A stretch of 64,000 nucleotides of DNA from Shigella phage Henu12. The translations under genes and the position numbers were made by a program. Below are positions 4,004-64,000 of this stretch, piece by piece; positions within the stretch are counted from its first letter, which is position 1, and each line of letters opens with the position of its first letter. The notes below the pieces were generated by a model that was not told where the DNA came from, made no database searches, and saw only the letters and a program-made list of their open reading frames with translations. The stretch is taken from sequence record OQ834936; one strand, 5' to 3'.

Positions 4004-4332
4004 ACCTTATCTCCTATAGTTCTGAATAGGACAAAACTTCTGTCATGAACAATACTCGAAGATACTGCAAAACTATTCTCAAGTATCTTTTTGTTTGGAT
4101 TGTAAAATTCTTCTTGAAACAAATCAAGAGCTTCTTGATGGTTCTGTGGAAGACCTTTGATATAGACCTTCAAAGTAACCGTTGTATAAATCTCAGAAGC
4201 TAACTCTGATTGTGCTGCTTGAAACAGTTCATTGATAAACTTATGACCATCTTCAGGACGCTTAATGTTTTCCCAACGTTCTTCAATGATTAAATTAACA
4301 TTCATCTGTTTAATTTTCATAGTAATCTCCAC
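3985..4332 (-). CDS. hypothetical protein
   Basis: 115 aa ORF, co-oriented, preceded by a terminator and followed by an overlapping small ORF. Confidence 0.45.
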   Translation of the reverse strand: MEITMKIKQMNVNLIIEERWENIKRPEDGHKFINELFQAAQSELASEIYTTVTLKVYIKGLPQNHQEALDLFQEEFYNPNKKILENSFAVSSSIVHDRSFVLFRTIGDKVCKVIG

Positions 4333-4333
4333 A

Positions 4334-4358
4334 AATTAAAAAGGCTCCCGTAGGAGCC
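4334..4358 (-). terminator. intrinsic terminator (GGCUCC-UACG-GGAGCC plus U-tract)
   Basis: 6-bp GC inverted repeat at 4343-4358 with tetraloop and T-run on the minus strand, directly 3' of the Nampt-family gene. Confidence 0.6.
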
Positions 4359-4373
4359 TCTTATCATACTGTT

Positions 4374-6200
4374 TTAAAGTTGCTTGTCAATAGTATTTCG
4401 AACATCACGCAGGTTAACGTAACCATAAGGTTGCGAGTTACTAAATACCAGTTTCAAAGCACTATGACAGTTGTCAATTGCACCTTCAAACTCTGCAAAG
4501 CCAAAACCATCTACAGCTACCAGCTTGTCACCATCCCACATAGGGACAACTCCACCAAAAGCAGACTTCTTAAGACCGCTGTCAGTTTTAGGGTCTTTAG
4601 CCAGCATAATTTCTTGACCATCCATCTGTGCAAGAGTTGCTTTAACAGCAAATGCAAAGGTGTCACGAGTCAGGTACTGATAGGTGTATGAGCCTACACC
4701 AAACACTACGTTAGAACTTGCAAAACCTTTATCAGCAAGACGTGACAGAATCTCATTAGCCCTTTCCAGAGTGATAGAATCACCGTAGATTAGCCCAATG
4801 TGCTCATCCAGTACTTTGTACCCTTTGGAGTTAACAGTGCCACCAAAGATGTTATACAGCGTGTGTATAGCTCCATCAATTTCTGCTGTTAACATACGCT
4901 TCACAGTAAACTGTCCAGTTTTCTGAGCGGTAATCAGGTTGATTGTGTCAATATAATCAAAATCTTCATTTTCAACAACCATCTCATAACCTTCAGAGAT
5001 TAACCAAGCAGAGAACCCAAAACCAATATCAGACATTTCACAATTCAAGATTGTGTCATGCAGATGGGTATTATCTGGTGCAAGACCTTTCATGTGCTTG
5101 TAGAACATTGACTTAGCAGTTTCCCATTCAACGGCTTTGTAACCTGTAACAATGTGAACAGGGTCTCCAGAGTCTGGACGAATTACCAACTTACCATCAC
5201 GATTCAGAATTACATTACGTAGCTCTGGCAGAATCTGTGTAACAGTACGCCAGAAGTTGTAAGTATCTGATACGGCACTTGCAATACCAGTTGGGTAAAC
5301 TTCTGTCAGAAGGCGATGGAAAGTTTCTACCTCACCACGCCAACGTTTGGCATCTAGTAATCCTTCAGACTGCATAATGTACTGTGAGTGAATATCCTCT
5401 TCTGTCAGGTCTTTCATATTCCATGAAATGTTTGCACACATCACAGAGTGTTCAGTTGCTGGTACAGAGTTGCCAATATCACTGATTGTCATAAACTGAC
5501 CATAAGCACGTTTAGCAGTATACACAGCAGGGAAGCTGTCAGTACCTTTAAAGCTGGTCAAGTGACCTACAGCATTAAAAGCATCATCTGTGAAGCCAGA
5601 CATACCACGCATTGCAAAATCATGACACTGCCAAGGTAAATGGAAGTCATTGTCACAGGTCTTGTCAGCCCATTGTTTACAGATACGTTTGTAATGCAGT
5701 GCAATAGTTGCAATCGTACAAGCCTTCCAGATTTCAGCAGAGAAAGCATCTTCAAGGTAACCAGCTACCCAATGGAATCCCTCTACAGTGTTTTTAAAGA
5801 CAATCATCGGGACACGCATAGGGACAATTGTACCTTCCTCTACAGAGTAGACTTCAACAGGTAGGTAACCCAAGTCATGAAGTTCTTCCCAATGTTGACG
5901 ACCAATAGCATCTGCACCAAGGACACCATTCATGATTTCCAAGATTTCGTCAATGGCTTCTTTCTTATCACGTTCAAAGAACGTTGCATTCCAGTGGTCT
6001 ACCAGATAGTCTTTTACAAAACGCTGAATACCAAAGGCTACAACACCATCAATCTCTAACGGAGAGTTAAACCATTTATCTCCACGAGGTGTTAAGTTCA
6101 GCATAAGATACTGTGTAGCATCTGGATACTGGTAGAAATGGCCAGATTTGTAGGCATCTGCATTAAGTGCTGCTGGTACTGCATAAAGTGATTTAGTCAT
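4374..6200 (-). CDS. nicotinamide phosphoribosyltransferase family protein (Nampt/NadV-like; could be a Namat-type NAD+-forming transferase)
   Basis: 608 aa; N-terminus ALNADAYKSGHFYQYP resembles the Nampt start (LLATDSYKVTHYKQYP); GVGSYTYQY-type motifs; about 100 aa longer than canonical Nampt. Confidence 0.8.
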   Translation of the reverse strand: MTKSLYAVPAALNADAYKSGHFYQYPDATQYLMLNLTPRGDKWFNSPLEIDGVVAFGIQRFVKDYLVDHWNATFFERDKKEAIDEILEIMNGVLGADAIGRQHWEELHDLGYLPVEVYSVEEGTIVPMRVPMIVFKNTVEGFHWVAGYLEDAFSAEIWKACTIATIALHYKRICKQWADKTCDNDFHLPWQCHDFAMRGMSGFTDDAFNAVGHLTSFKGTDSFPAVYTAKRAYGQFMTISDIGNSVPATEHSVMCANISWNMKDLTEEDIHSQYIMQSEGLLDAKRWRGEVETFHRLLTEVYPTGIASAVSDTYNFWRTVTQILPELRNVILNRDGKLVIRPDSGDPVHIVTGYKAVEWETAKSMFYKHMKGLAPDNTHLHDTILNCEMSDIGFGFSAWLISEGYEMVVENEDFDYIDTINLITAQKTGQFTVKRMLTAEIDGAIHTLYNIFGGTVNSKGYKVLDEHIGLIYGDSITLERANEILSRLADKGFASSNVVFGVGSYTYQYLTRDTFAFAVKATLAQMDGQEIMLAKDPKTDSGLKKSAFGGVVPMWDGDKLVAVDGFGFAEFEGAIDNCHSALKLVFSNSQPYGYVNLRDVRNTIDKQL

Positions 6201-58400: not shown

Positions 58401-60017
58401 TTATCGTCTTAGCCCCTGATATGGATTACTCTTCATAATATCTGTATGAGCACCCATTGAAGGTGGCTTGAATAGTTTAACTTCGTTTAGACTGTTGAAA
58501 GCATCACTGGTAGCATCCACTTGGTCATCCTTAGTACGACCATCACCACAAAAACCTTCTAGTTCTTGGAAATATGCTTCATTCCAAGAGCCTCTAACAA
58601 TTTTGACAAGTCCTGCCTCAGAAGCAGCAGAGAAACCCGCAAAACGGGTGACTTTATCTTTATTTGTTGGTTTAGCTCTTGCTCGGAAACCTTTCTCAGC
58701 AAGTTTTCTAATAAGGGAGGTTGCGTAGGATTTACCAGCAGCGCCGGGGTCTTGAGGGATAAAAATACCTGTGCGCTTACCATCACCTTCAGCAGTTTGG
58801 TTAATTTGTGTTTCAACTCCAGAAGGTCTATCTCTAAATCTTACTACGTTAATCACATAATAGCAACCATCTTTTTTAGATTTACCCATTTTAACACCTG
58901 CTGTCCAGTCAGGGTTAGGGTTAACCTCAGAAGGTAATGTTGCTGCTAAGTCCCATGCTCTCACGTCAAATACGTCTGCTGGAACACTATCAACAATTTC
59001 ACACCATTGTCTTTGCCAGTAGTTTGAACCTTCAGCACGAGCTTTCCAGTTACCAAAACGTAAACGTGCAACGTTAACTGGTGTGTTGTTTTCTAATTTA
59101 CCACGATACTTAGGTTCAAGGAAATCTAGAATAGGGTTGTCATCGATTGTACCGGAAATAAAGGTATATGTTTGAGGAATCTCAAGAGGGAACATTTCAA
59201 GAATTTTATCTCTATCCCAATCAGAAACCATGACACCATCATTCATAACATACCAACGAATCCTACCGCACTTCTCTGGGTCTGGATATCCAGCATCATC
59301 TAGGAAAGGTTCTACCCAATCATAAATAAAGTGGTCTCTATCTGGGTTCATTGAGATTTTCATATATGAGTCGCCTTCAGCACCAGAACGTAAACGTGTC
59401 TGAAGATATGAAATCTGTGAAGCCGAGAAGTGTGTACCTTCGTCGAAATAAATAGCTGAGTATTCGATACCTTGGTGACCTTCTGAGTGTTTCTCAAGTT
59501 CCAAATAAGTAAACTTGATAGTTGCTCCAGAAGGGAAAGTGATAGTCATTTTCTGTTCATGTGGAACTCCACCAAACTTACCAAATAACTTCTTAGCCGC
59601 AGGCCACAAACCACCTTGTAACTGTGTTGTATTTCGACGGAAATAAACAGCATTATAGTTTGGGTCTTCAATGAACCTTAGTGAGTCCATTAATAGGGCA
59701 GCAGTCTTACCAGCACCAGCAGCACCACCATATAGTACCAAGTCAGCATTAGTGTTCAAGAATACCTCTTGAGAGCCAGGCTGTGGAGCTACATAGTTCT
59801 TGTCAGTCATCAATTTAAAGATGAGTCTTACTTGGTCTGGGGTGTACCTTAATAAAGTCAGAATTTGAGTTGGAAGGAATTTAGAGGGGTCTTTACCAAA
59901 GGATTTGATAATATCTTTTACTTCTTCAGAAAGCCCCAACTCACCTGCTAGGACTTTCCTTACATCTTCCACTCGCTTCTGCTTAATAACATTTAAGTCC
60001 ATTAAGCACCTCTGCAA
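58401..60017 (-). CDS. terminase large subunit
   Basis: 538 aa; Walker A VLYGGAAGAGKT; C-terminal acidic nuclease-like region. Confidence 0.8.
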   Translation of the reverse strand: MQRCLMDLNVIKQKRVEDVRKVLAGELGLSEEVKDIIKSFGKDPSKFLPTQILTLLRYTPDQVRLIFKLMTDKNYVAPQPGSQEVFLNTNADLVLYGGAAGAGKTAALLMDSLRFIEDPNYNAVYFRRNTTQLQGGLWPAAKKLFGKFGGVPHEQKMTITFPSGATIKFTYLELEKHSEGHQGIEYSAIYFDEGTHFSASQISYLQTRLRSGAEGDSYMKISMNPDRDHFIYDWVEPFLDDAGYPDPEKCGRIRWYVMNDGVMVSDWDRDKILEMFPLEIPQTYTFISGTIDDNPILDFLEPKYRGKLENNTPVNVARLRFGNWKARAEGSNYWQRQWCEIVDSVPADVFDVRAWDLAATLPSEVNPNPDWTAGVKMGKSKKDGCYYVINVVRFRDRPSGVETQINQTAEGDGKRTGIFIPQDPGAAGKSYATSLIRKLAEKGFRARAKPTNKDKVTRFAGFSAASEAGLVKIVRGSWNEAYFQELEGFCGDGRTKDDQVDATSDAFNSLNEVKLFKPPSMGAHTDIMKSNPYQGLRR

Positions 60018-60023
60018 ATAGAA

Positions 60024-60230
60024 TTATTCAGAAACTTCTTCAGATTCCTGTTTAGGTTCTACACCAAACTTTTCATCTACTAAATTAAGAAGTTTATCCA
60101 TCGTTGCTTCTTGTGGGTTAATACCAGTTGCAACAATTAAACGTTCAGCCACAGCCATTACAGTTGCTTGAAGCATCTGAGCCTGTTTCTGAGTTTCATA
60201 TAGTTCTTTGTAAACATTAGTCTCGTTCAT
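60024..60230 (-). CDS. hypothetical protein upstream of terminase
   Basis: 68 aa ORF. Confidence 0.4.
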   Translation of the reverse strand: MNETNVYKELYETQKQAQMLQATVMAVAERLIVATGINPQEATMDKLLNLVDEKFGVEPKQESEEVSE

Positions 60231-60359
60231 TGTATTTCTCCAAAATTAAAGTTATAGTGATTCCCCTGAAAAAAGACGGTGCAGAGACCGTCAAGGAGAA
60301 ACCACAATGTATGCCAGAGACATACTGTATAGGTCTGCCCATAAAGTATAACTCTATAA

Positions 60360-60420
60360 AAAAGCCCTGTCTAAAAATACTCTCCGGTAGCGAAAGGGAG
60401 AATACTCATAGCAGGGCATA
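60360..60420 (-). terminator. putative terminator at the 3' end of the tRNA array
   Basis: Long imperfect hairpin (GCCCTG...CAGGGC with internal CTCTCC/GGGAGA) followed by TTTTTTAT on the minus strand. Confidence 0.45.
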
Positions 60421-60447
60421 ATAACTTTGAGAGAGATATTAATAAAT

Positions 60448-60523
60448 TGGAGTATCGGAAGGGATTTGAACCCTCATAAACCTGTTTTGCAGACAGGCAC
60501 ATATCCATTTCTGTCACCGATAC
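60448..60523 (-). tRNA. tRNA-Cys (anticodon GCA)
   Basis: Manual fold: 7-bp acceptor stem, anticodon loop CUGCAAA, T-loop TTCAAAT, encoded CCA. Confidence 0.75.
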
Positions 60524-60530
60524 ATTAAAT

Positions 60531-60623
60531 TGGAGGAAGATACCAGACTTGAACTGGTACGCCGATTTCTCGGTTACTGGCAGTTTAGCAAACTGCTCCC
60601 TTACCTTTTAGGGTTAATCTTCC
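60531..60623 (-). tRNA. tRNA-Ser (anticodon GCU), long variable arm
   Basis: 93 nt; acceptor GGAAGAT/ATCTTCC; anticodon loop TTGCTAA; T-arm ACCAG-TTCAAGT-CTGGT. Confidence 0.7.
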
Positions 60624-60624
60624 A

Positions 60625-61359
60625 TTATTTGTTCAGAGCTTCTTTCATCTCTGGAGTTGCGATAGTATCAATCACACCAGTTTTACATGAATCGTCAAAC
60701 CAGCTTGGTAGAACATTCGCAAGGAAACCATTAATATTTGTTTTCAGGTATTCTGCAATCAGTGCTGCTTCATCTGCAATCATCTGAGTTACTTCATTAG
60801 CATATGCAGTAATCTTTGTAATACCCTCATTAATCGCTGTAACGGCCTGTGTAGCGAGTTCAGAGATTGTATCTAGTCCTTGGTCGATTGCATCTTGCAA
60901 ATCGCTTAGGACGCTATTTACAGCGTCTATGGAGGTATTAATCAAATCCATCGCTTTATTACCGTACTCGGTAGCTACGCCCATGATACCGCTAAACGGT
61001 GTACATCCAACCTGTTCACCTGCTGCTCCCATAACGTTAGAGTAACCTTTAGCTACTTGCATACGTTGTGAAAACTCATCTACAGACTTTTGTCCATACT
61101 CAGTGAGTGTACTTGTCGTTGAAGTTGTACTTCCAAGGCTTGTTGTGAAGCTTCCTAATAAGGCTGTTGTCAGTCCAGCAGCAACTAAAATCTGTTGTGT
61201 TGCAGGGTCTGTTACAGAACTAATTGAGTTCACTAATGATTGAGAAGCAGCTACAGTACCACCAAGAACTGCTGCACCAGTAATAAGAGGGTTAGAGAAC
61301 CCATTACCAGTTTTAAGGAGATTAAAAATCTCTTTACTTTGTTCTGTCATCTCTTTCAT
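60625..61359 (-). CDS. hypothetical Ser/Thr/Ala-rich protein inside the tRNA region
   Basis: About 244 aa from the internal Met; low-complexity S/T/A/G-rich sequence; the ORF-track start at 61422 would overlap a tRNA-like element. Confidence 0.4.
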   Translation of the reverse strand: MKEMTEQSKEIFNLLKTGNGFSNPLITGAAVLGGTVAASQSLVNSISSVTDPATQQILVAAGLTTALLGSFTTSLGSTTSTTSTLTEYGQKSVDEFSQRMQVAKGYSNVMGAAGEQVGCTPFSGIMGVATEYGNKAMDLINTSIDAVNSVLSDLQDAIDQGLDTISELATQAVTAINEGITKITAYANEVTQMIADEAALIAEYLKTNINGFLANVLPSWFDDSCKTGVIDTIATPEMKEALNK

Positions 61360-61377
61360 TATGCACCTATAAAGTTG

Positions 61378-61452
61378 GTAGCCCATCGGGATTTGAACCC
61401 TGTTCTCATGTTTTTCAGACACGCGCTTTAACCATATAAGCTAATTGAGCTA
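61378..61452 (-). tRNA. tRNA-like element, possibly tRNA-Phe (anticodon GAA), noncanonical
   Basis: T-loop TTCAAAT and acceptor pairing present, but the T-stem has only 3 clean pairs and the acceptor/D junction is irregular. Confidence 0.4.
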
Positions 61453-61458
61453 TTAAAT

Positions 61459-61535
61459 TGGGGTGACCTACGGGAATCGAACCCGTATAGACCATGTTCA
61501 CAGCATGGGTCATTATCCATTTATGATAAGGCCAC
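61459..61535 (-). tRNA. tRNA-His (anticodon GUG)
   Basis: Manual fold: D-stem TCAT/ATGA, anticodon stem CCATG/CATGG with loop CTGTGAA, T-arm ACGGG-TTCGATT-CCCGT, CCA encoded. Confidence 0.75.
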
Positions 61536-61566
61536 ATTTAAGGACTCTCGTAAGAACCCTTAGAAG

Positions 61567-61642
61567 TGGCAGCAGTATAAGGATTTGAACCTTAATCTTT
61601 CAGCTTCAGAGGCTGGAGCATTGCCAGTTATGCTATACTGCT
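61567..61642 (-). tRNA. tRNA-Gln (anticodon CUG)
   Basis: Acceptor AGCAGTA/TACTGCT, anticodon loop CTCTGAA, T-loop TTCAAAT. Confidence 0.6.
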
Positions 61643-61648
61643 AATATT

Positions 61649-61727
61649 TGGTACTCCATATCGGATTCGAACCGATACATAACACAGATTTTAAATCTGG
61701 CCTCTCTGCCAATTGGAGTAATGGAGC
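61649..61727 (-). tRNA. tRNA with Leu-type anticodon UAA (class I length)
   Basis: Acceptor and T-arm ATCGG-TTCGAAT-CCGAT are clear; anticodon loop TTTAAAA; D-loop CAATTGGCAGA; variable region only about 7 nt. Confidence 0.5.
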
Positions 61728-61729
61728 AT

Positions 61730-61805
61730 TGGCGGGGGATGATGGAATTGAACCATCTTCTTCGATTTCAAAGACCGAGGTTTTAACCTTGTAAACTAAT
61801 CCCCT
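61730..61805 (-). tRNA. tRNA-Gln (anticodon UUG)
   Basis: Anticodon stem TCGGT/ATCGA with loop CTTTGAA; T-arm GATGG-TTCAATT-CCATC. Confidence 0.6.
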
Positions 61806-61813
61806 ATTAAATT

Positions 61814-61890
61814 TGGTGCAGAATAGAGGATTCGAACCCCTAACTAACAACTTCGTAGGTTGCTGCTCTATCCATTTGAACTAATTCTGC
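61814..61890 (-). tRNA. tRNA-Arg (anticodon ACG)
   Basis: Perfect acceptor GCAGAAT/ATTCTGC; D-stem GTTC/GAGC; anticodon loop CTACGAA; T-loop TTCGAAT. Confidence 0.75.
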
Positions 61891-62052
61891 AATATCCTTT
61901 TGAGATTCCTGTCTAGCTCTCTTCTTATCTCTTCTGAGAAAGCGTTTACGATGGTCTGTACGCCATTTGTAATAATCTTCTTCACCATCATGTGCTGCAC
62001 AGCAGCCACAACTTGCAATTTCAACTTTACCATGTCTACCATAAGGCTTCAT
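61840..62052 (-). CDS. hypothetical Cys-rich basic small protein embedded in the tRNA array
   Basis: 70 aa ORF with GGAG RBS 7 nt upstream of the ATG; its 3' 50 nt overlap tRNA-Arg(ACG). Confidence 0.3.
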   Translation of the reverse strand: MKPYGRHGKVEIASCGCCAAHDGEEDYYKWRTDHRKRFLRRDKKRARQESQKDIAELVQMDRAATYEVVS

Positions 62053-62067
62053 AGGAATCTCCTAATT

Positions 62068-62145
62068 TGGTGTTCCAAGACGGATTCGAACCGTCACTAA
62101 TACAAGGTTTGAGCTTGCATCCTCTGCCAATTGGGATACTGGAAC
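62068..62145 (-). tRNA. tRNA with Leu-type anticodon CAA (class I length)
   Basis: Acceptor GTTCCAG/TTGGAAC; D-loop CAATTGGCAGA; anticodon stem GCAAG/CTTGT with loop CTCAAAC; T-arm GACGG-TTCGAAT-CCGTC. Confidence 0.5.
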
Positions 62146-62146
62146 T

Positions 62147-62221
62147 TGGTACTCGCTGAAGGACTTGAACCTTCTTCACCAACTTGTAAGGATGGGGCTT
62201 TACCGTATAAACTAAGCGAGC
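62147..62221 (-). tRNA. tRNA-Val (anticodon UAC), tentative
   Basis: T-arm GAAGG-TTCAAGT-CCTTC; anticodon loop CTTACAA; one mismatch in the anticodon stem. Confidence 0.5.
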
Positions 62222-62317
62222 TTTAAAAGAGGTCTGAAGTTGTGCCGCTAACTCAACTCCGTGGAATTTGTTACGGTCTTCAGTTGACTCAAGCGGTCTT
62301 TCACTTGACCTCAAAAT

Positions 62318-62394
62318 TGGTGCTGCTCACAGGACTCGAACCTGCATCTCCATCCTTACAAGGGATGTGCAATAGCCAATTATACGAAAGCAGC
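62318..62394 (-). tRNA. tRNA-Thr (anticodon UGU), tentative
   Basis: Anticodon stem CATCC/GGATG with loop CTTGTAA; T-loop TTCGAGT. Confidence 0.55.
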
Positions 62395-62400
62395 ATTATT

Positions 62401-62475
62401 TGGAGCATCCAGAGGGAATCGAACCCTCAACTTCAGTTTGGAAGACTGTAGTTTTCCCATTTAAACTATGGATGC
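62401..62475 (-). tRNA. tRNA-Gly (anticodon UCC)
   Basis: Acceptor GCATCCA/TGGATGC; D-stem GTTT/AAAC; anticodon loop CTTCCAA; T-arm GAGGG-TTCGATT-CCCTC. Confidence 0.7.
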
Positions 62476-62481
62476 ACTAAT

Positions 62482-62557
62482 TGGTGGAGAAGCAGGGAAT
62501 TGAACCCTGTACTTAAGTTTGCAAAACTTATGTTTTAACCATGTAAACTACATCCCC
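62482..62557 (-). tRNA. tRNA-Ala (anticodon UGC)
   Basis: G3-U70 wobble pair in the acceptor stem; anticodon stem TAAGT/ACTTA with loop TTTGCAA; T-arm CAGGG-TTCAATT-CCCTG. Confidence 0.7.
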
Positions 62558-62563
62558 GATATT

Positions 62564-62639
62564 TGGTACAGGTGGAGGGAATTGAACCCATCGTCTTACT
62601 GATTAAGAGTCAGCCGCATAACCATTTTGCTACACCTGC
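62564..62639 (-). tRNA. tRNA-Lys (anticodon CUU), tentative
   Basis: Anticodon loop CTCTTAA; T-stem partly mismatched. Confidence 0.45.
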
Positions 62640-62646
62640 ATTAATT

Positions 62647-62722
62647 TGGTACACCTAGAGAGAGTCGAACTCACACTGAACAGATTCTAAGTCTGCTGCC
62701 TCTTCCAATTGGGCTATAGGTG
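62647..62722 (-). tRNA. tRNA with Leu-type anticodon UAG (class I length)
   Basis: D-loop CAATTGGAAGA; anticodon stem GCAGA/TCTGT with loop CTTAGAA; T-loop TTCGACT. Confidence 0.5.
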
Positions 62723-62974
62723 CATTAAATCTTTGTAGAGAACTTCCAAGACCCCAAAGCAACAATGGTGTAGTTTGCCTCAGAAGTTCTCTAAAAAGAC
62801 CTAAACAGTCTTTGCATAGTCTTGTTTAATCCGGTGACTAGAACCTTTGGAGAGCTTGATACTATCTCTTCTCCGTGACACCTACTAGGTGCTTCATCAG
62901 TGCCGTGTACGCCAATACACGGAGGGAAACCTAACGCAACATTCGAACGGAGCGCGGCTTTAAATCTTATTAGG

Positions 62975-63062
62975 CGGTAAGTAAAGGAGTCGAACCCTCA
63001 CCGTATCTCTACAGTGGCAACAGTTTTCAAGACTGTTTGGCTGCCATTAGCCGCTACCTACC
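62975..63062 (-). tRNA. tRNA-Ser (anticodon UGA), long variable arm
   Basis: 88 nt; acceptor GGTAGGT/ACTTACC; anticodon stem ACAGT/ACTGT with loop CTTGAAA; T-loop TTCGACT. Confidence 0.65.
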
Positions 63063-63075
63063 CCTAATAAGACTT

Positions 63076-63158
63076 TGGCATGGGACGGAGGAATCGAACC
63101 CCTTTGAGTAAGTTTTGGAGGCTTACGCACATGCCTTAGTGTCTTAACATCGTCCCAT
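63076..63158 (-). tRNA. tRNA-Trp-like (anticodon CCA), atypical 83-nt length
   Basis: Perfect acceptor ATGGGAC/GTCCCAT; loop CTCCAAA; T-loop TTCGATT; about 7 extra nt in the D region. Confidence 0.45.
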
Positions 63159-63299
63159 ACTATAATTCGAAGCTTACCCTGTTATCTCAACACTGTCAAG
63201 CTTCTTCTCAGATTATTTACATGTTCTGGAAAACATGAGATACAGACCACCTCCTTACAGGAGACCCGTTAAGGTCGTCTAAGTAATCTGCTAACTATT

Positions 63300-63376
63300 T
63301 GGCACACCCTACAGGATTCGAACCTGTAACTCAATGATTAGAAGTCATTTGCTCTGTCCAGTTGAACTAAGGGTGC
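63300..63376 (-). tRNA. tRNA-Arg (anticodon UCU)
   Basis: D-stem GTTC/GAGC; perfect anticodon stem AATGA/TCATT with loop CTTCTAA; T-arm ACAGG-TTCGAAT-CCTGT. Confidence 0.75.
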
Positions 63377-63608
63377 ATTAACATTTTAAAGGGTACTCAT
63401 TGCATTTAAGCCAAGCCCCATAAGGGATACCCTTTAGAATGTTGCCCACTTTATTAATCATACCGTGGGCTAGTACGCCAAATTCTTTGATGAGGGTTTG
63501 GAAGACCTCACTGGTGTTTAGCCTATTAAGCTACTGCCAGAAAAACATTATCGTTTGCATTTATTTTAAGTTTGCAAAATAGACGCTACGCTAACGAAAA
63601 CTAAGGTT

Positions 63609-63637
63609 ACTATAAAGTAGTCACATCTCAATGTCAA
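63609..63637 (-). promoter_or_regulatory. sigma70-like promoter internal to the tRNA array
   Basis: Minus strand TTGACA, 17 nt spacer, TATAGT, directed toward the downstream tRNA genes. Confidence 0.45.
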
Positions 63638-63652
63638 CAACTTTATTGAAAT

Positions 63653-63728
63653 TGGTACTGTGAGAAGGATTCGAACCTTCTGCCTTTCGGTTATCAGCCG
63701 AATGCACATCCATATGTGCTTTCACAGC
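63653..63728 (-). tRNA. tRNA-Ile (anticodon GAU)
   Basis: D-stem GCAC/GTGC; perfect anticodon stem TTCGG/CCGAA with loop CTGATAA; T-arm GAAGG-TTCGAAT-CCTTC. Confidence 0.75.
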
Positions 63729-64000
63729 ATTGTTACTCCTTCGTGCACCTCTCTGTGACAATTTGCACACAGCAATACACACTTATCAACTTCAGACTTC
63801 ATTACCTCTATAGAGAAGTGTTTTTGTCCTACTGTAAAGTCCTTTGTATTAGGGTCTAAGTGGTGAAACTCTAAAGCCTTTATGCACTTATTGTATCCAC
63901 AAATTGAGCAACAACCACCTTTGTAATCAACTAAAACCCTCTTAAGTTTGTCACGAGACTTTTTAACGTGTTGTGACTTTGCTTTCTTTTCTTCGTCAGG
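63722..64000 (-). CDS. HNH nuclease (partial; 5' end beyond window)
   Basis: Minus-strand frame open to the window edge; C-terminal region LEFHHLDP...CVLLCANCHREVHEG has the HNH Cys/His pattern; stop overlaps the 5' end of tRNA-Ile by 7 nt. Confidence 0.55.
   Translation of the reverse strand, partial: PDEEKKAKSQHVKKSRDKLKRVLVDYKGGCCSICGYNKCIKALEFHHLDPNTKDFTVGQKHFSIEVMKSEVDKCVLLCANCHREVHEGVTML

Follow-up and report, generated by a model that had tools for sequence, protein, structure and literature searches.

The stretch of DNA analysed here, hereafter the window, comprises 64,000 nucleotides (nt) of Shigella phage Henu12 (sequence record OQ834936) and carries an array of transfer RNA (tRNA) genes interrupted by several tRNA-free gaps. 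Our analyses concern these gaps and, above all, the one at 63377-63652, which is predicted to encode a small RNA that joins a surrogate of the mRNA-like domain of bacterial transfer-messenger RNA (tmRNA, the product of ssrA) to a 5ʹ arm complementary to host tmRNA. The window is from a FelixO1-like phage. Over 62100-63800 it shows 100% identity to Shigella phage Henu11 (Ounavirinae, Mooglevirus), and 273 records of FelixO1-like phages match this segment at 80-99% identity, mostly 80-95%. ARAGORN locates 18 tRNA genes between 60448 and 63728, all on the minus strand, and finds no tRNA in 62724-62972, 63377-63652 or 62222-62317 (hereafter gaps 1, 2 and 3). The original prediction, made from the letters of this stretch, had singled out these three gaps as lacking both tRNAs and convincing open reading frames (ORFs). 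This description is borne out by ARAGORN, by Rfam and by the ORF list, in which the ORFs within the gaps span at most 47 amino acids (aa) and are without support. A further tRNA-free gap, at 63063-63299 (gap 4), was absent from that prediction.

Two of the checks proposed for the gaps were computational. A covariance search with Rfam matched them to no family above threshold: a scan by E-value of 60000-64000 returned only tRNA matches, with sub-threshold noise in the gaps, and 14 related loci searched at the gathering threshold contained no family but tRNA. Comparative alignment showed that the gaps are kept in 253-610 phage records with compensatory changes, which is clearly not the lack of conservation expected of idle spacers.

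Gap 2 is predicted to encode an RNA of approximately 165 nt whose main element, hereafter the tag module, occupies 63444-63603 on the minus strand. The predicted parts of this gap, in the direction of transcription, are as follows.

63609-63637, minus strand: sigma-70-type promoter, TTGACA (63637-63632), 17 nt, TATAGT (63614-63609); 11 of 12 consensus positions, the best match in 60200-64000

63574-63603, minus strand: 5ʹ anti-tmRNA domain, TAGTTTTCGTTAGCGTAGCGTCTATTTTGC, the collinear reverse complement of Escherichia coli ssrA nt ~77/81-106

63559-63573, minus strand: A-rich single-stranded linker, ending in ATAAAT directly before the resume codon

63523-63558, minus strand: tag frame, GCA AAC GAT AAT GTT TTT CTG GCA GTA GCT TAA TAG, encoding ANDNVFLAVA and two stops

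63511-63540, minus strand: helix-5-like stem, CTGG...CCAG, enclosing the tag end and the stop codons

63478-63510, minus strand: pseudoknot A, hairpin TGAGG/CCTCA whose loop CCAA pairs with a downstream TTGG

63444-63477, minus strand: pseudoknot B, CGTACT/GGTATG interleaved with GCCCAC/GTGGGC, with conserved loop GATTAATAA

63377-63443, minus strand: stem-enclosed module, stem AACATTCTAAAGGGTA / TACCCTTTAAAATGTT and loop CCCTTATGGGGCTTGGCTTAAATGCA, ending at the RNase P site of tRNA-Arg(tct)

The promoter-like sequence had been noticed in the original prediction, and it proves to be real and to lie on the minus strand, which is the strand of the tRNAs. Its spacing suggests a transcription start at about 63602, among the first bases of the antisense block. 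Promoters of the forms TTGACA-17-TAGATT and TTGACA-17-TAATCT are found directly upstream of tag modules in siphoviruses and in Erwinia phage M7, such that three independent promoter contexts (window, siphoviruses and Erwinia phage M7) put the start at the antisense block. More generally, the upstream context of the module varies by lineage and can be a promoter, a stem module or a tRNA. In having its own promoter and a 5ʹ seed, with the start placed by promoter spacing, the module resembles trans-acting antisense small RNAs (sRNAs).

The tag frame was found by aligning BLAST homologues of gap 2, and the statements on conservation that follow refer to a comparative set of 66 distinct homologous sequences. 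The frame consists of exactly 10 codons and a stop in all 66. By comparison, the tag encoded by E. coli ssrA is ANDENYALAA, likewise followed by two stops; tags at further loci, from a pattern scan of viral contigs, include ANDDVVLMAA, ANDEQFLAVA, ANEEMYLAVA, ANDDLMLMAA, ANDNTFLAVA and ANDNYALAAA. Codon 1 (GCA or GCT), codon 2 (AAC or AAT) and codon 10 (all four GCN codons) vary only synonymously, codon 7, for leucine, is CTG or TTG in 64 of the 66, and the middle codons are free to vary. Upstream of the frame, the A at position -4 is present without exception (66/66), and the hexamer from -6 to -1 reads ATAAAT in 56 sequences, compared with ATAGTC in E. coli ssrA. This codon pattern is the one expected under selection on a translated tag, even though the frame is partly base-paired.

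The fold is likewise supported by comparison. Standard base pairs occupy 98.7% of alignment cells, compared with 32-48% when the partners are slid by one to three columns. Changes on both sides are seen at 11 of the 19 pairs (138 cells), and 0 of 500 shuffles reach the observed values, although the relatedness of the sequences means that such shuffle statistics are not probabilities. The helix-5-like stem (helix 1) is paired in 95% of cells and has changed from G-C to A-U in 23 sequences. In pseudoknot A (helices 2 and 3), 99.6-99.7% of cells are paired, and the contact between loop and tail covaries as CCGA:UCGG, CCAA:UUGG and CCAG:CUGG. Pseudoknot B takes the form CGCACU:GGUGUG interleaved with GCCC:GGGC in the alignment; its helix 4 is 99.5% paired, with three pairs changed on both sides, and its second stem varies in length while holding its pairing across more than eight different sequences. 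Several of the pairs are G-U, and therefore the transcribed strand is that of the tRNAs. Folded as a lone sequence, the element in 63377-63652 is not significant (z = -1.2), and the pseudoknots came only from the comparative data. An intramolecular closing helix for the 5ʹ domain (AGUUU/AAACU) was rejected because, judged by eye, it is not conserved across variants.

The 5ʹ domain opens with an invariant motif, (T)AGTTTTCGT, that is the exact reverse complement of ssrA nt 97-106 (ACGAAAACTA), which encode Asp-Glu-Asn-Tyr of the host tag. Further collinear blocks are GCGAC, complementary to GTCGC at -3 to +2 of the host resume codon, TTTGCGG (against CCGCAAA) and CTTTTTA (against TAAAAAG). In total, the exact blocks correspond to ssrA nt 97-106, 86-91, 75-81 and 68-74, or nt 68-106 overall. 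The version carried by FelixO1 and the window, TAGTTTTCGT plus GCGTCTATTTTGC, covers ssrA nt ~77-106, a region that includes the bases before the resume codon, the resume codon itself and the four tag codons named above. Measured along the phage RNA, the antisense part takes up the first ~30-60 nt, and its single-stranded target region in host tmRNA also takes in the end of pseudoknot 1.

Such complementarity is beyond chance, as is also required of a trans-acting antisense sRNA. For the lambdoid-type version (locus L016), 0 of 20,000 shuffles reach the complementarity score and the forward strand of ssrA scores at background; for the window version, the local-alignment score is reached by 1 in 500 to 1 in 1000 shuffles. 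The mean energy of pairing between the 5ʹ domain and ssrA nt 60-112 is -33 kcal/mol, compared with -16 kcal/mol for pairing with the equivalent region of its own RNA, and host ssrA is the better partner in 65 of the 66 variants. The resume context of the element (AAT before GCA) and codons 3-6 of its frame depart from the host sequence exactly at the sites that would otherwise pair with its own 5ʹ arm. Cofolding with full-length ssrA predicts that the duplex is kept; the net gain is -6.5 kcal/mol in the window (U2-C31 paired with ssrA 106-77) and reaches -17 kcal/mol. The other structured parts of the array, namely gaps 1 and 3, the segment of gap 4 described below as gap 4a, and the module at 63377-63443, show complementarity to E. 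coli ssrA no better than that of shuffles.

The distribution of the tag module extends well beyond FelixO1-like phages. BLAST matches gap 2 to 610 phage records, and positions 86-210 of this query match unrelated phages at 72-82% identity. The carriers are Ackermannviridae of ~158 kb, Schitoviridae of ~72 kb, unclassified siphoviruses of ~45 kb and Erwinia Ounavirinae, and the module occurs in at least four unrelated phage lineages (Ounavirinae, Ackermannviridae, Schitoviridae and siphoviruses). It is unannotated in most of the phage records listed. A pattern scan of viral contigs added ~95 loci, and a loose-pattern scan of bacterial genome contigs returned 120 chance matches, none of which contained the element. 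Among complete E. coli genomes, 171 of 5426 (~3%) carry the module, with no annotated feature under the matches listed. In one inspected E. coli prophage and one lambdoid-like IMG/VR locus, it lies between the Q antiterminator region and the lysis genes, and both the prophage and the lambdoid-like contig place it within a multi-module array.

The modules beside it differ from locus to locus. In 19 of 102 loci, one of the type found at 63377-63443 adjoins the tag module and shares its strand, and the loop CCCTTATGGGGCTTGGCTTAAATGCA of this type is present, unannotated, in 398 complete E. coli genomes, on chromosomal prophages and on plasmids of ~90-190 kb. The GGGGCU of this type matches the 5ʹ end of tmRNA, a match that may be fortuitous. 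In lambdoid prophages and ~45-kb siphoviruses (L016, minus orientation, 4060-4640; L133, 3400-3870; L005, 1450-1860), we observed arrays of RNA modules that are exchangeable and match nothing in Rfam; a conserved long stem (ACAACAGGTAAGAGCATT ... AGTGCTCTTTCCGTTGTGG) encloses each module. Some inserts of these arrays hold the T-arm-like sequence GGTTCGAATCC, and a conserved terminal module reads GTGGTGAATGCGCAGGCTGATGCGC...CCGGCCACCAC. Neighbouring modules that combine a long stem with a T-arm led us to consider the Y RNA-like YrlA family (RF02553), which is tied to Ro60 loci (PMC4201824). This candidate was rejected, given that tie, a score of 21.6 bits against a threshold of 69, overlap with genuine tRNAs and no match in related loci.

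Other surroundings of the tag module are equally varied. In phage Marshall (Ackermannviridae) it sits within ~2 kb devoid of annotated genes, and the only ORFs called around it in Klebsiella phage May are tiny; Vi01-like phages may therefore carry a large array of noncoding RNAs (ncRNAs). In Erwinia phage M7 (L006, 1405-1465), a mini tRNA-like sequence that ARAGORN does not call lies just upstream of the tag-module promoter and has an acceptor-like stem and a GGTTCGAATCC T-arm without an anticodon arm.

The body of the phage RNA is similar to part of bacterial tmRNA (RF00023). Both have an A-rich leader, an A at -4, a GCA resume codon, a 10-residue tag that starts with Ala-Asn-Asp and ends with a hydrophobic residue followed by Ala-(Val/Ala)-Ala, a helix-5-like stem around the stops and H-type pseudoknots downstream. 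The elements that define an mRNA-like domain (A-rich leader, resume codon, tag, and stops within helix 5) are therefore all present. The phage RNA differs in its size (~165 nt compared with 363 nt), in the lack of a tRNA-like domain and in having a 5ʹ end antisense, not homologous, to tmRNA. Its two covariation-supported pseudoknots lie downstream of the tag and there is none upstream, where the antisense arm stands in place of pseudoknot 1.

Searches for the missing half of a tmRNA were negative. ARAGORN gives no tmRNA call for the window or for ~70 loci bearing the module, and the flanks of the module, read by eye, show no acceptor stem with G3:U70. The phage RNA is also without a T-arm and a CCA. 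The Rfam tmRNA model (RF00023) scores 12.1 bits at the tag module (63517-63567, minus strand), below its gathering score of 47, and tmRNA_permuted (RF04321) scores 21.7 bits at 63526-63644 on the minus strand, also against a gathering score of 47, with an aligned stretch that takes in the promoter. No separate upstream acceptor piece, as found in two-piece tmRNAs of the latter family, was seen. The tag-module RNA is not a tmRNA in the family sense, and, as it has no tRNA-like domain, it cannot work alone.

What the original prediction missed is that gap 2 appears to hold a tmRNA-derived, anti-tmRNA element common to unrelated phage families. Its 5ʹ arm is complementary to the accessible mRNA-like region of host tmRNA, and its body has the make-up of a surrogate mRNA-like domain; from these features, we infer that the RNA is expressed, pairs with tmRNA in vivo and has its frame translated. 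The RNAs of the gaps are probably made as part of the minus-strand transcription of the tRNA array and freed when the tRNAs are processed. The arm of the phage RNA would dock on host tmRNA by base pairing, an event that would hide the resume codon and initial tag codons of the host and would disrupt pseudoknot 1 on its 3ʹ strand. At the end of the duplex nearest to helix 2 and the tRNA-like domain, the leader, resume codon and frame of the phage RNA would emerge. In the resulting assembly, which would resemble a two-piece tmRNA, rescued ribosomes would add the phage tag (ANDNVFLAVA in this case) in place of ANDENYALAA. At minimum, host tagging would be lost during infection.

We hold the view that the phage RNA acts on host tmRNA and that its frame is used only tentatively, at slightly less than an even chance. 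The stronger proposal, in which a widespread class of phage RNAs reprograms ribosome rescue such that a tag of the form ANDxxxLAVA or ANDxxxLMAA replaces the host degradation tag in full, is possible but doubtful. Similar doubt attaches to the proposal that this class is carried as a shufflable module in the ncRNA arrays of virulent and temperate enterobacterial phages.

Several points weigh against the action on tmRNA and the use of the phage frame. We know of no precedent for a ribosome that resumes on a template tethered only by an intermolecular duplex, and a duplex of 30-40 base pairs (bp) could simply be a substrate for RNase III. Pairing in the window is shorter than in the lambdoid version, at ~22-25 bp with an RNAduplex energy of -28 kcal/mol (z = -1.0). 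An Erwinia tmRNA variant predicted from phage M7, TAGAAGCAAACGACGAAAACTA, has 0 matches in bacterial genome contigs, and no covariation that tracks the host is shown because Salmonella and Klebsiella Ackermannviridae have the same 5ʹ block. Since the tag frame partly forms the helix-5-like stem, some of the coding-type conservation could be structural, and the relatedness of the 66 sequences tempers the statistics given above.

An alternative explanation is that the RNA is an antisense inhibitor and nothing else. Pairing with tmRNA would block tagging or trigger cleavage by RNase III, for which long RNA duplexes are typical targets, and the untranslated body would contribute its 3ʹ half as a stabilising scaffold or as a decoy for proteins (S1, SmpB or RNase R). 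The complementarity to ssrA would serve this explanation equally well, and the absence of a tRNA-like domain is in keeping with it. However, it leaves unexplained the fixed length of 10 codons, the Ala-Asn start, the hydrophobic-Ala end, the stop at codon 11, the exclusively synonymous change at codons 1, 2 and 10 and the invariant A at -4, and we regard it as rather unlikely. It is improbable that the module is instead the coding piece of a split phage tmRNA whose tRNA-like partner lies elsewhere, for example in the T-arm modules or in the gene at 63076-63158 described below. Two-piece tmRNAs do exist in nature, modules bearing a T-arm adjoin the tag module in some loci, the tmRNA_permuted model gives the weak match noted above, and there is a weak resemblance to ssrA nt 286-308 in the D-region of the 63076-63158 gene, at a score that 4 of 1000 shuffles reach. 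Yet the neighbouring modules vary freely, 32 of 59 module loci scanned together with ARAGORN are without any tRNA, no G3:U70 acceptor stem was seen, the 63076-63158 gene has G3-C70 and a Trp anticodon, and no conserved partner complementary to the module ends was found. A split tmRNA would also leave the antisense match to host ssrA unexplained.

The presence of both sense-like and antisense-like tmRNA segments within one element, in a region shuffled by mobile HNH endonuclease genes, would also fit a relic, that is, a captured and rearranged fragment of host ssrA (an inverted partial duplication) that serves as a structured spacer or processing signal and is inactive on trans-translation. A relic would not be expected to persist in prophages and in four or more unrelated lineages of phages, to show covariation, peptide-level constraint and dedicated promoters, or to have diverged in its sense part exactly at the would-be self-pairing sites, and this origin accordingly has poor prospects. 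Finally, the gaps as a group might be spacers without function, leftovers of inserted homing endonucleases or genes for small proteins, given that HNH genes fill neighbouring gaps in relatives and that the FelixO1 annotation places an ORF of 65 aa (ORF46) in gap 1. We consider this highly improbable. Gap 3 is 95-99% identical in 250 genomes, compared with mostly 80-95% for 62100-63800 as a whole, and gap 1 has a near-invariant core of ~90 nt and compensated stems among 28 distinct sequences. As a protein gene, gap 1 was rejected: subgroups differ by an indel of 1 nt that puts ORF46 out of frame, and in the window the ORF measures 26 aa.

Known systems share some, but not all, features of the element for which we propose action on host tmRNA. 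A 2014 survey found phage ssrA genes only in mycobacteriophages and Bacillus phage G, and described in phage DS6A an RNA consisting of the tRNA-like domain alone that was proposed to interfere with host tmRNA (PMC4131195). Later genome reports, recovered by literature search, add the tmRNA of Streptomyces phages. As in those cases (the mycobacteriophage Bxz1 group, Bacillus phage G and DS6A), the phage carries part of the RNA machinery of trans-translation. However, the earlier examples are complete or comprise the tRNA-like domain alone, whereas the Henu12-type element comprises the mRNA-like domain alone with an antisense arm, and it is carried by enterobacterial phages, in which phage tmRNA RNAs were previously unreported. 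The proposed topology, with coding and acceptor segments on separate base-paired chains, parallels the two-piece tmRNAs of alpha-proteobacteria and cyanobacteria. In those RNAs, a single gene supplies both pieces, which are joined by pairing in the acceptor stem and helix 2, whereas the proposed partner of the phage RNA is an intact host tmRNA paired in its mRNA-like region.

Phages and prophages also encode base-pairing sRNAs and anti-sRNAs, such as DicF and the AsxR and AgvB RNAs of Stx prophages. The tag-module RNA resembles these in being a short phage transcript with a 5ʹ seed complementary to a host RNA, and in the location of its prophage copies between Q and the lysis genes. It differs in that its predicted target is tmRNA, not an mRNA or sRNA, and in that a surrogate reading frame is also present. 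We know of no described example of an anti-tmRNA sRNA with a surrogate frame. Full-text literature searches, of incomplete coverage, returned no description of a phage tmRNA mimic or anti-tmRNA RNA, and the mentions of tmRNA in papers on these phage genera were citations of ARAGORN. Within the bounds of that coverage, the element appears to be of a categorically new kind.

The remaining gaps also contain predicted RNAs. The alignments of these gaps among FelixO1-like phages comprise 11-28 distinct sequences, and the following features were identified.

62724-62972, minus strand: gap 1, putative multi-hairpin RNA of ~250 nt, from conservation and pairing

~62928-62958, minus strand: gap 1 hairpin H1, variable in sequence

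62903-62922, minus strand: gap 1 hairpin H2

62879-62891, minus strand: gap 1 hairpin H3

62806-62893, minus strand: gap 1 near-invariant core (~90 nt)

62727-62803, minus strand: gap 1 long terminal hairpin H6

62229-62312, minus strand: gap 3, irregular hairpin of ~84 nt, GAGGTC...GACCTC, with invariant loop AACAAATTCC

63200-63299, minus strand: gap 4a, putative structured RNA in which GCAGATTACT pairs with GGTGGTCTGT around a hairpin

63076-63158, minus strand: non-canonical tRNA-Trp(CCA)-like gene, with A1-U72, G73, a 3ʹ CCA and compensated stems

Gap 1 is found in 253 records of the phage collection, essentially all FelixO1-like, at 80-90% identity. Its 28 distinct sequences preserve 49 predicted pairs, one of which is broken in a single sequence. 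In the terminal hairpin, one pair is compensated on both sides and many switch from G-U to A-U or G-C, and H1 has been replaced by several unrelated sequences that also form hairpins. Both inverted repeats cited in the original prediction are present: CCGTGTA..TACACGG coincides with H2 (62903-62922), and GAGGTC/GACCTC forms the ends of gap 3 (62229-62234 and 62307-62312). A homologue of gap 3 lies directly after tRNA-Gly in Escherichia phage TH18 (Vequintavirinae; L273, 1201-1283), where the outer stem is rewritten from GAGGUC/GACCUC to AGAUGUC/GACAUCU and the core CCGC..GTCAACTGAAGACCGTAACAAATTCCA is kept. Gap 4 occurs in 258 records, and in some relatives the loop of gap 4a is enlarged by an inserted hairpin of 24 nt.

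Gaps 1, 3 and 4a appear to be new, structured, lineage-restricted RNAs, and they should be released as discrete RNAs by tRNA processing at their borders. When possible antisense targets were sought for them and for the module at 63377-63443, matches elsewhere in the 64-kb window were at chance level, and BLAST against E. coli genomes found no matches to chromosomal genes. The proposal that small RNAs reside in the gaps thus stands insofar as conservation and covariation point to structured ncRNAs inside the tRNA array, one of them with its own promoter. The accompanying analogy to T4 holds for position, as T4 species 1 and 2 (rnaC and rnaD) are likewise small RNAs of undefined function inside a phage tRNA cluster. 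It does not extend to sequence: compared with all of the gaps, rnaC and rnaD show no similarity, and they match only T-loop-type words in the window tRNAs. As a separate observation, ssrA nt 118-127, the segment of the stop codons and helix 5, recur exactly in T4 rnaC (L274, 1909-2047) as CTTAATAACC, with a T-arm after them. Against ssrA alone the match is weak (E = 0.036), and rnaC is without a tag-like frame.

The tRNA-Trp-like gene in gap 4 is called neither by ARAGORN nor by the Rfam tRNA model (RF00005), because six extra bases between the acceptor and D stems precede the D stem, and it is missing from the Henu11 annotation as well. It folds into acceptor, anticodon and T arms, is conserved in FelixO1-like phages and has a partial match in Pectobacterium phage Wc4-1. 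Both-side compensation is seen at four pairs of the anticodon stem (GUAAG/CUUAC compared with AACGG/CCGUU), one of the D stem and one of the T stem, and the anticodon loop reads CUCCAAA or UUCCAAC. We take A1-U72, G73, the CCA and the anticodon loop to be identity features of E. coli tRNA-Trp. A possible promoter (TTGACA at 63194-63199 and TAAGCT at 63171-63176) precedes the gene.

Elsewhere, the array varies by insertion, and its junctions are insertion hot spots. Between tRNA-Glx and tRNA-Arg (61805-61814), the window has 8 nt compared with ~247 nt in the Henu11 annotation (1970-2218 of the compared record); FelixO1 has the 558-nt ORF48 at this junction, and identity between the window and Henu11 stops near 61803. 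Different relatives have HNH genes in different gaps of the array. A minus-strand ORF in 63722-64000 that begins just upstream of tRNA-Ile, overlapping it, is Henu11 gp64, which corresponds to FelixO1 ORF44, an HNH endonuclease. A further tRNA-free gap (61891-62067, minus strand) contains a 70-aa ORF (61840-62052) that overlaps the 5ʹ end of tRNA-Arg(acg) and whose product has a Cys-rich N-terminus and a basic C-terminus.

Trans-translation, a drug target, serves bacteria as the main pathway of ribosome rescue and protein quality control. To our knowledge, phages have so far been known only to depend on this pathway or, rarely, to carry complete tmRNAs. The tag module is present in hundreds of phages of therapeutic type (FelixO1-like, Vi01-like, N4-like and siphoviruses of T1-like size) and in E. 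coli prophages. The seemingly empty spacers of tRNA arrays and the Q-lysis region of lambdoid prophages hold modular, exchangeable ncRNA arrays that annotation pipelines have missed. If our interpretation is correct, the tag-module RNA would be the first natural RNA known to act on tmRNA and possibly a natural tag template supplied in trans, and an RNA that both mimics and targets tmRNA would represent a new mode of host takeover.

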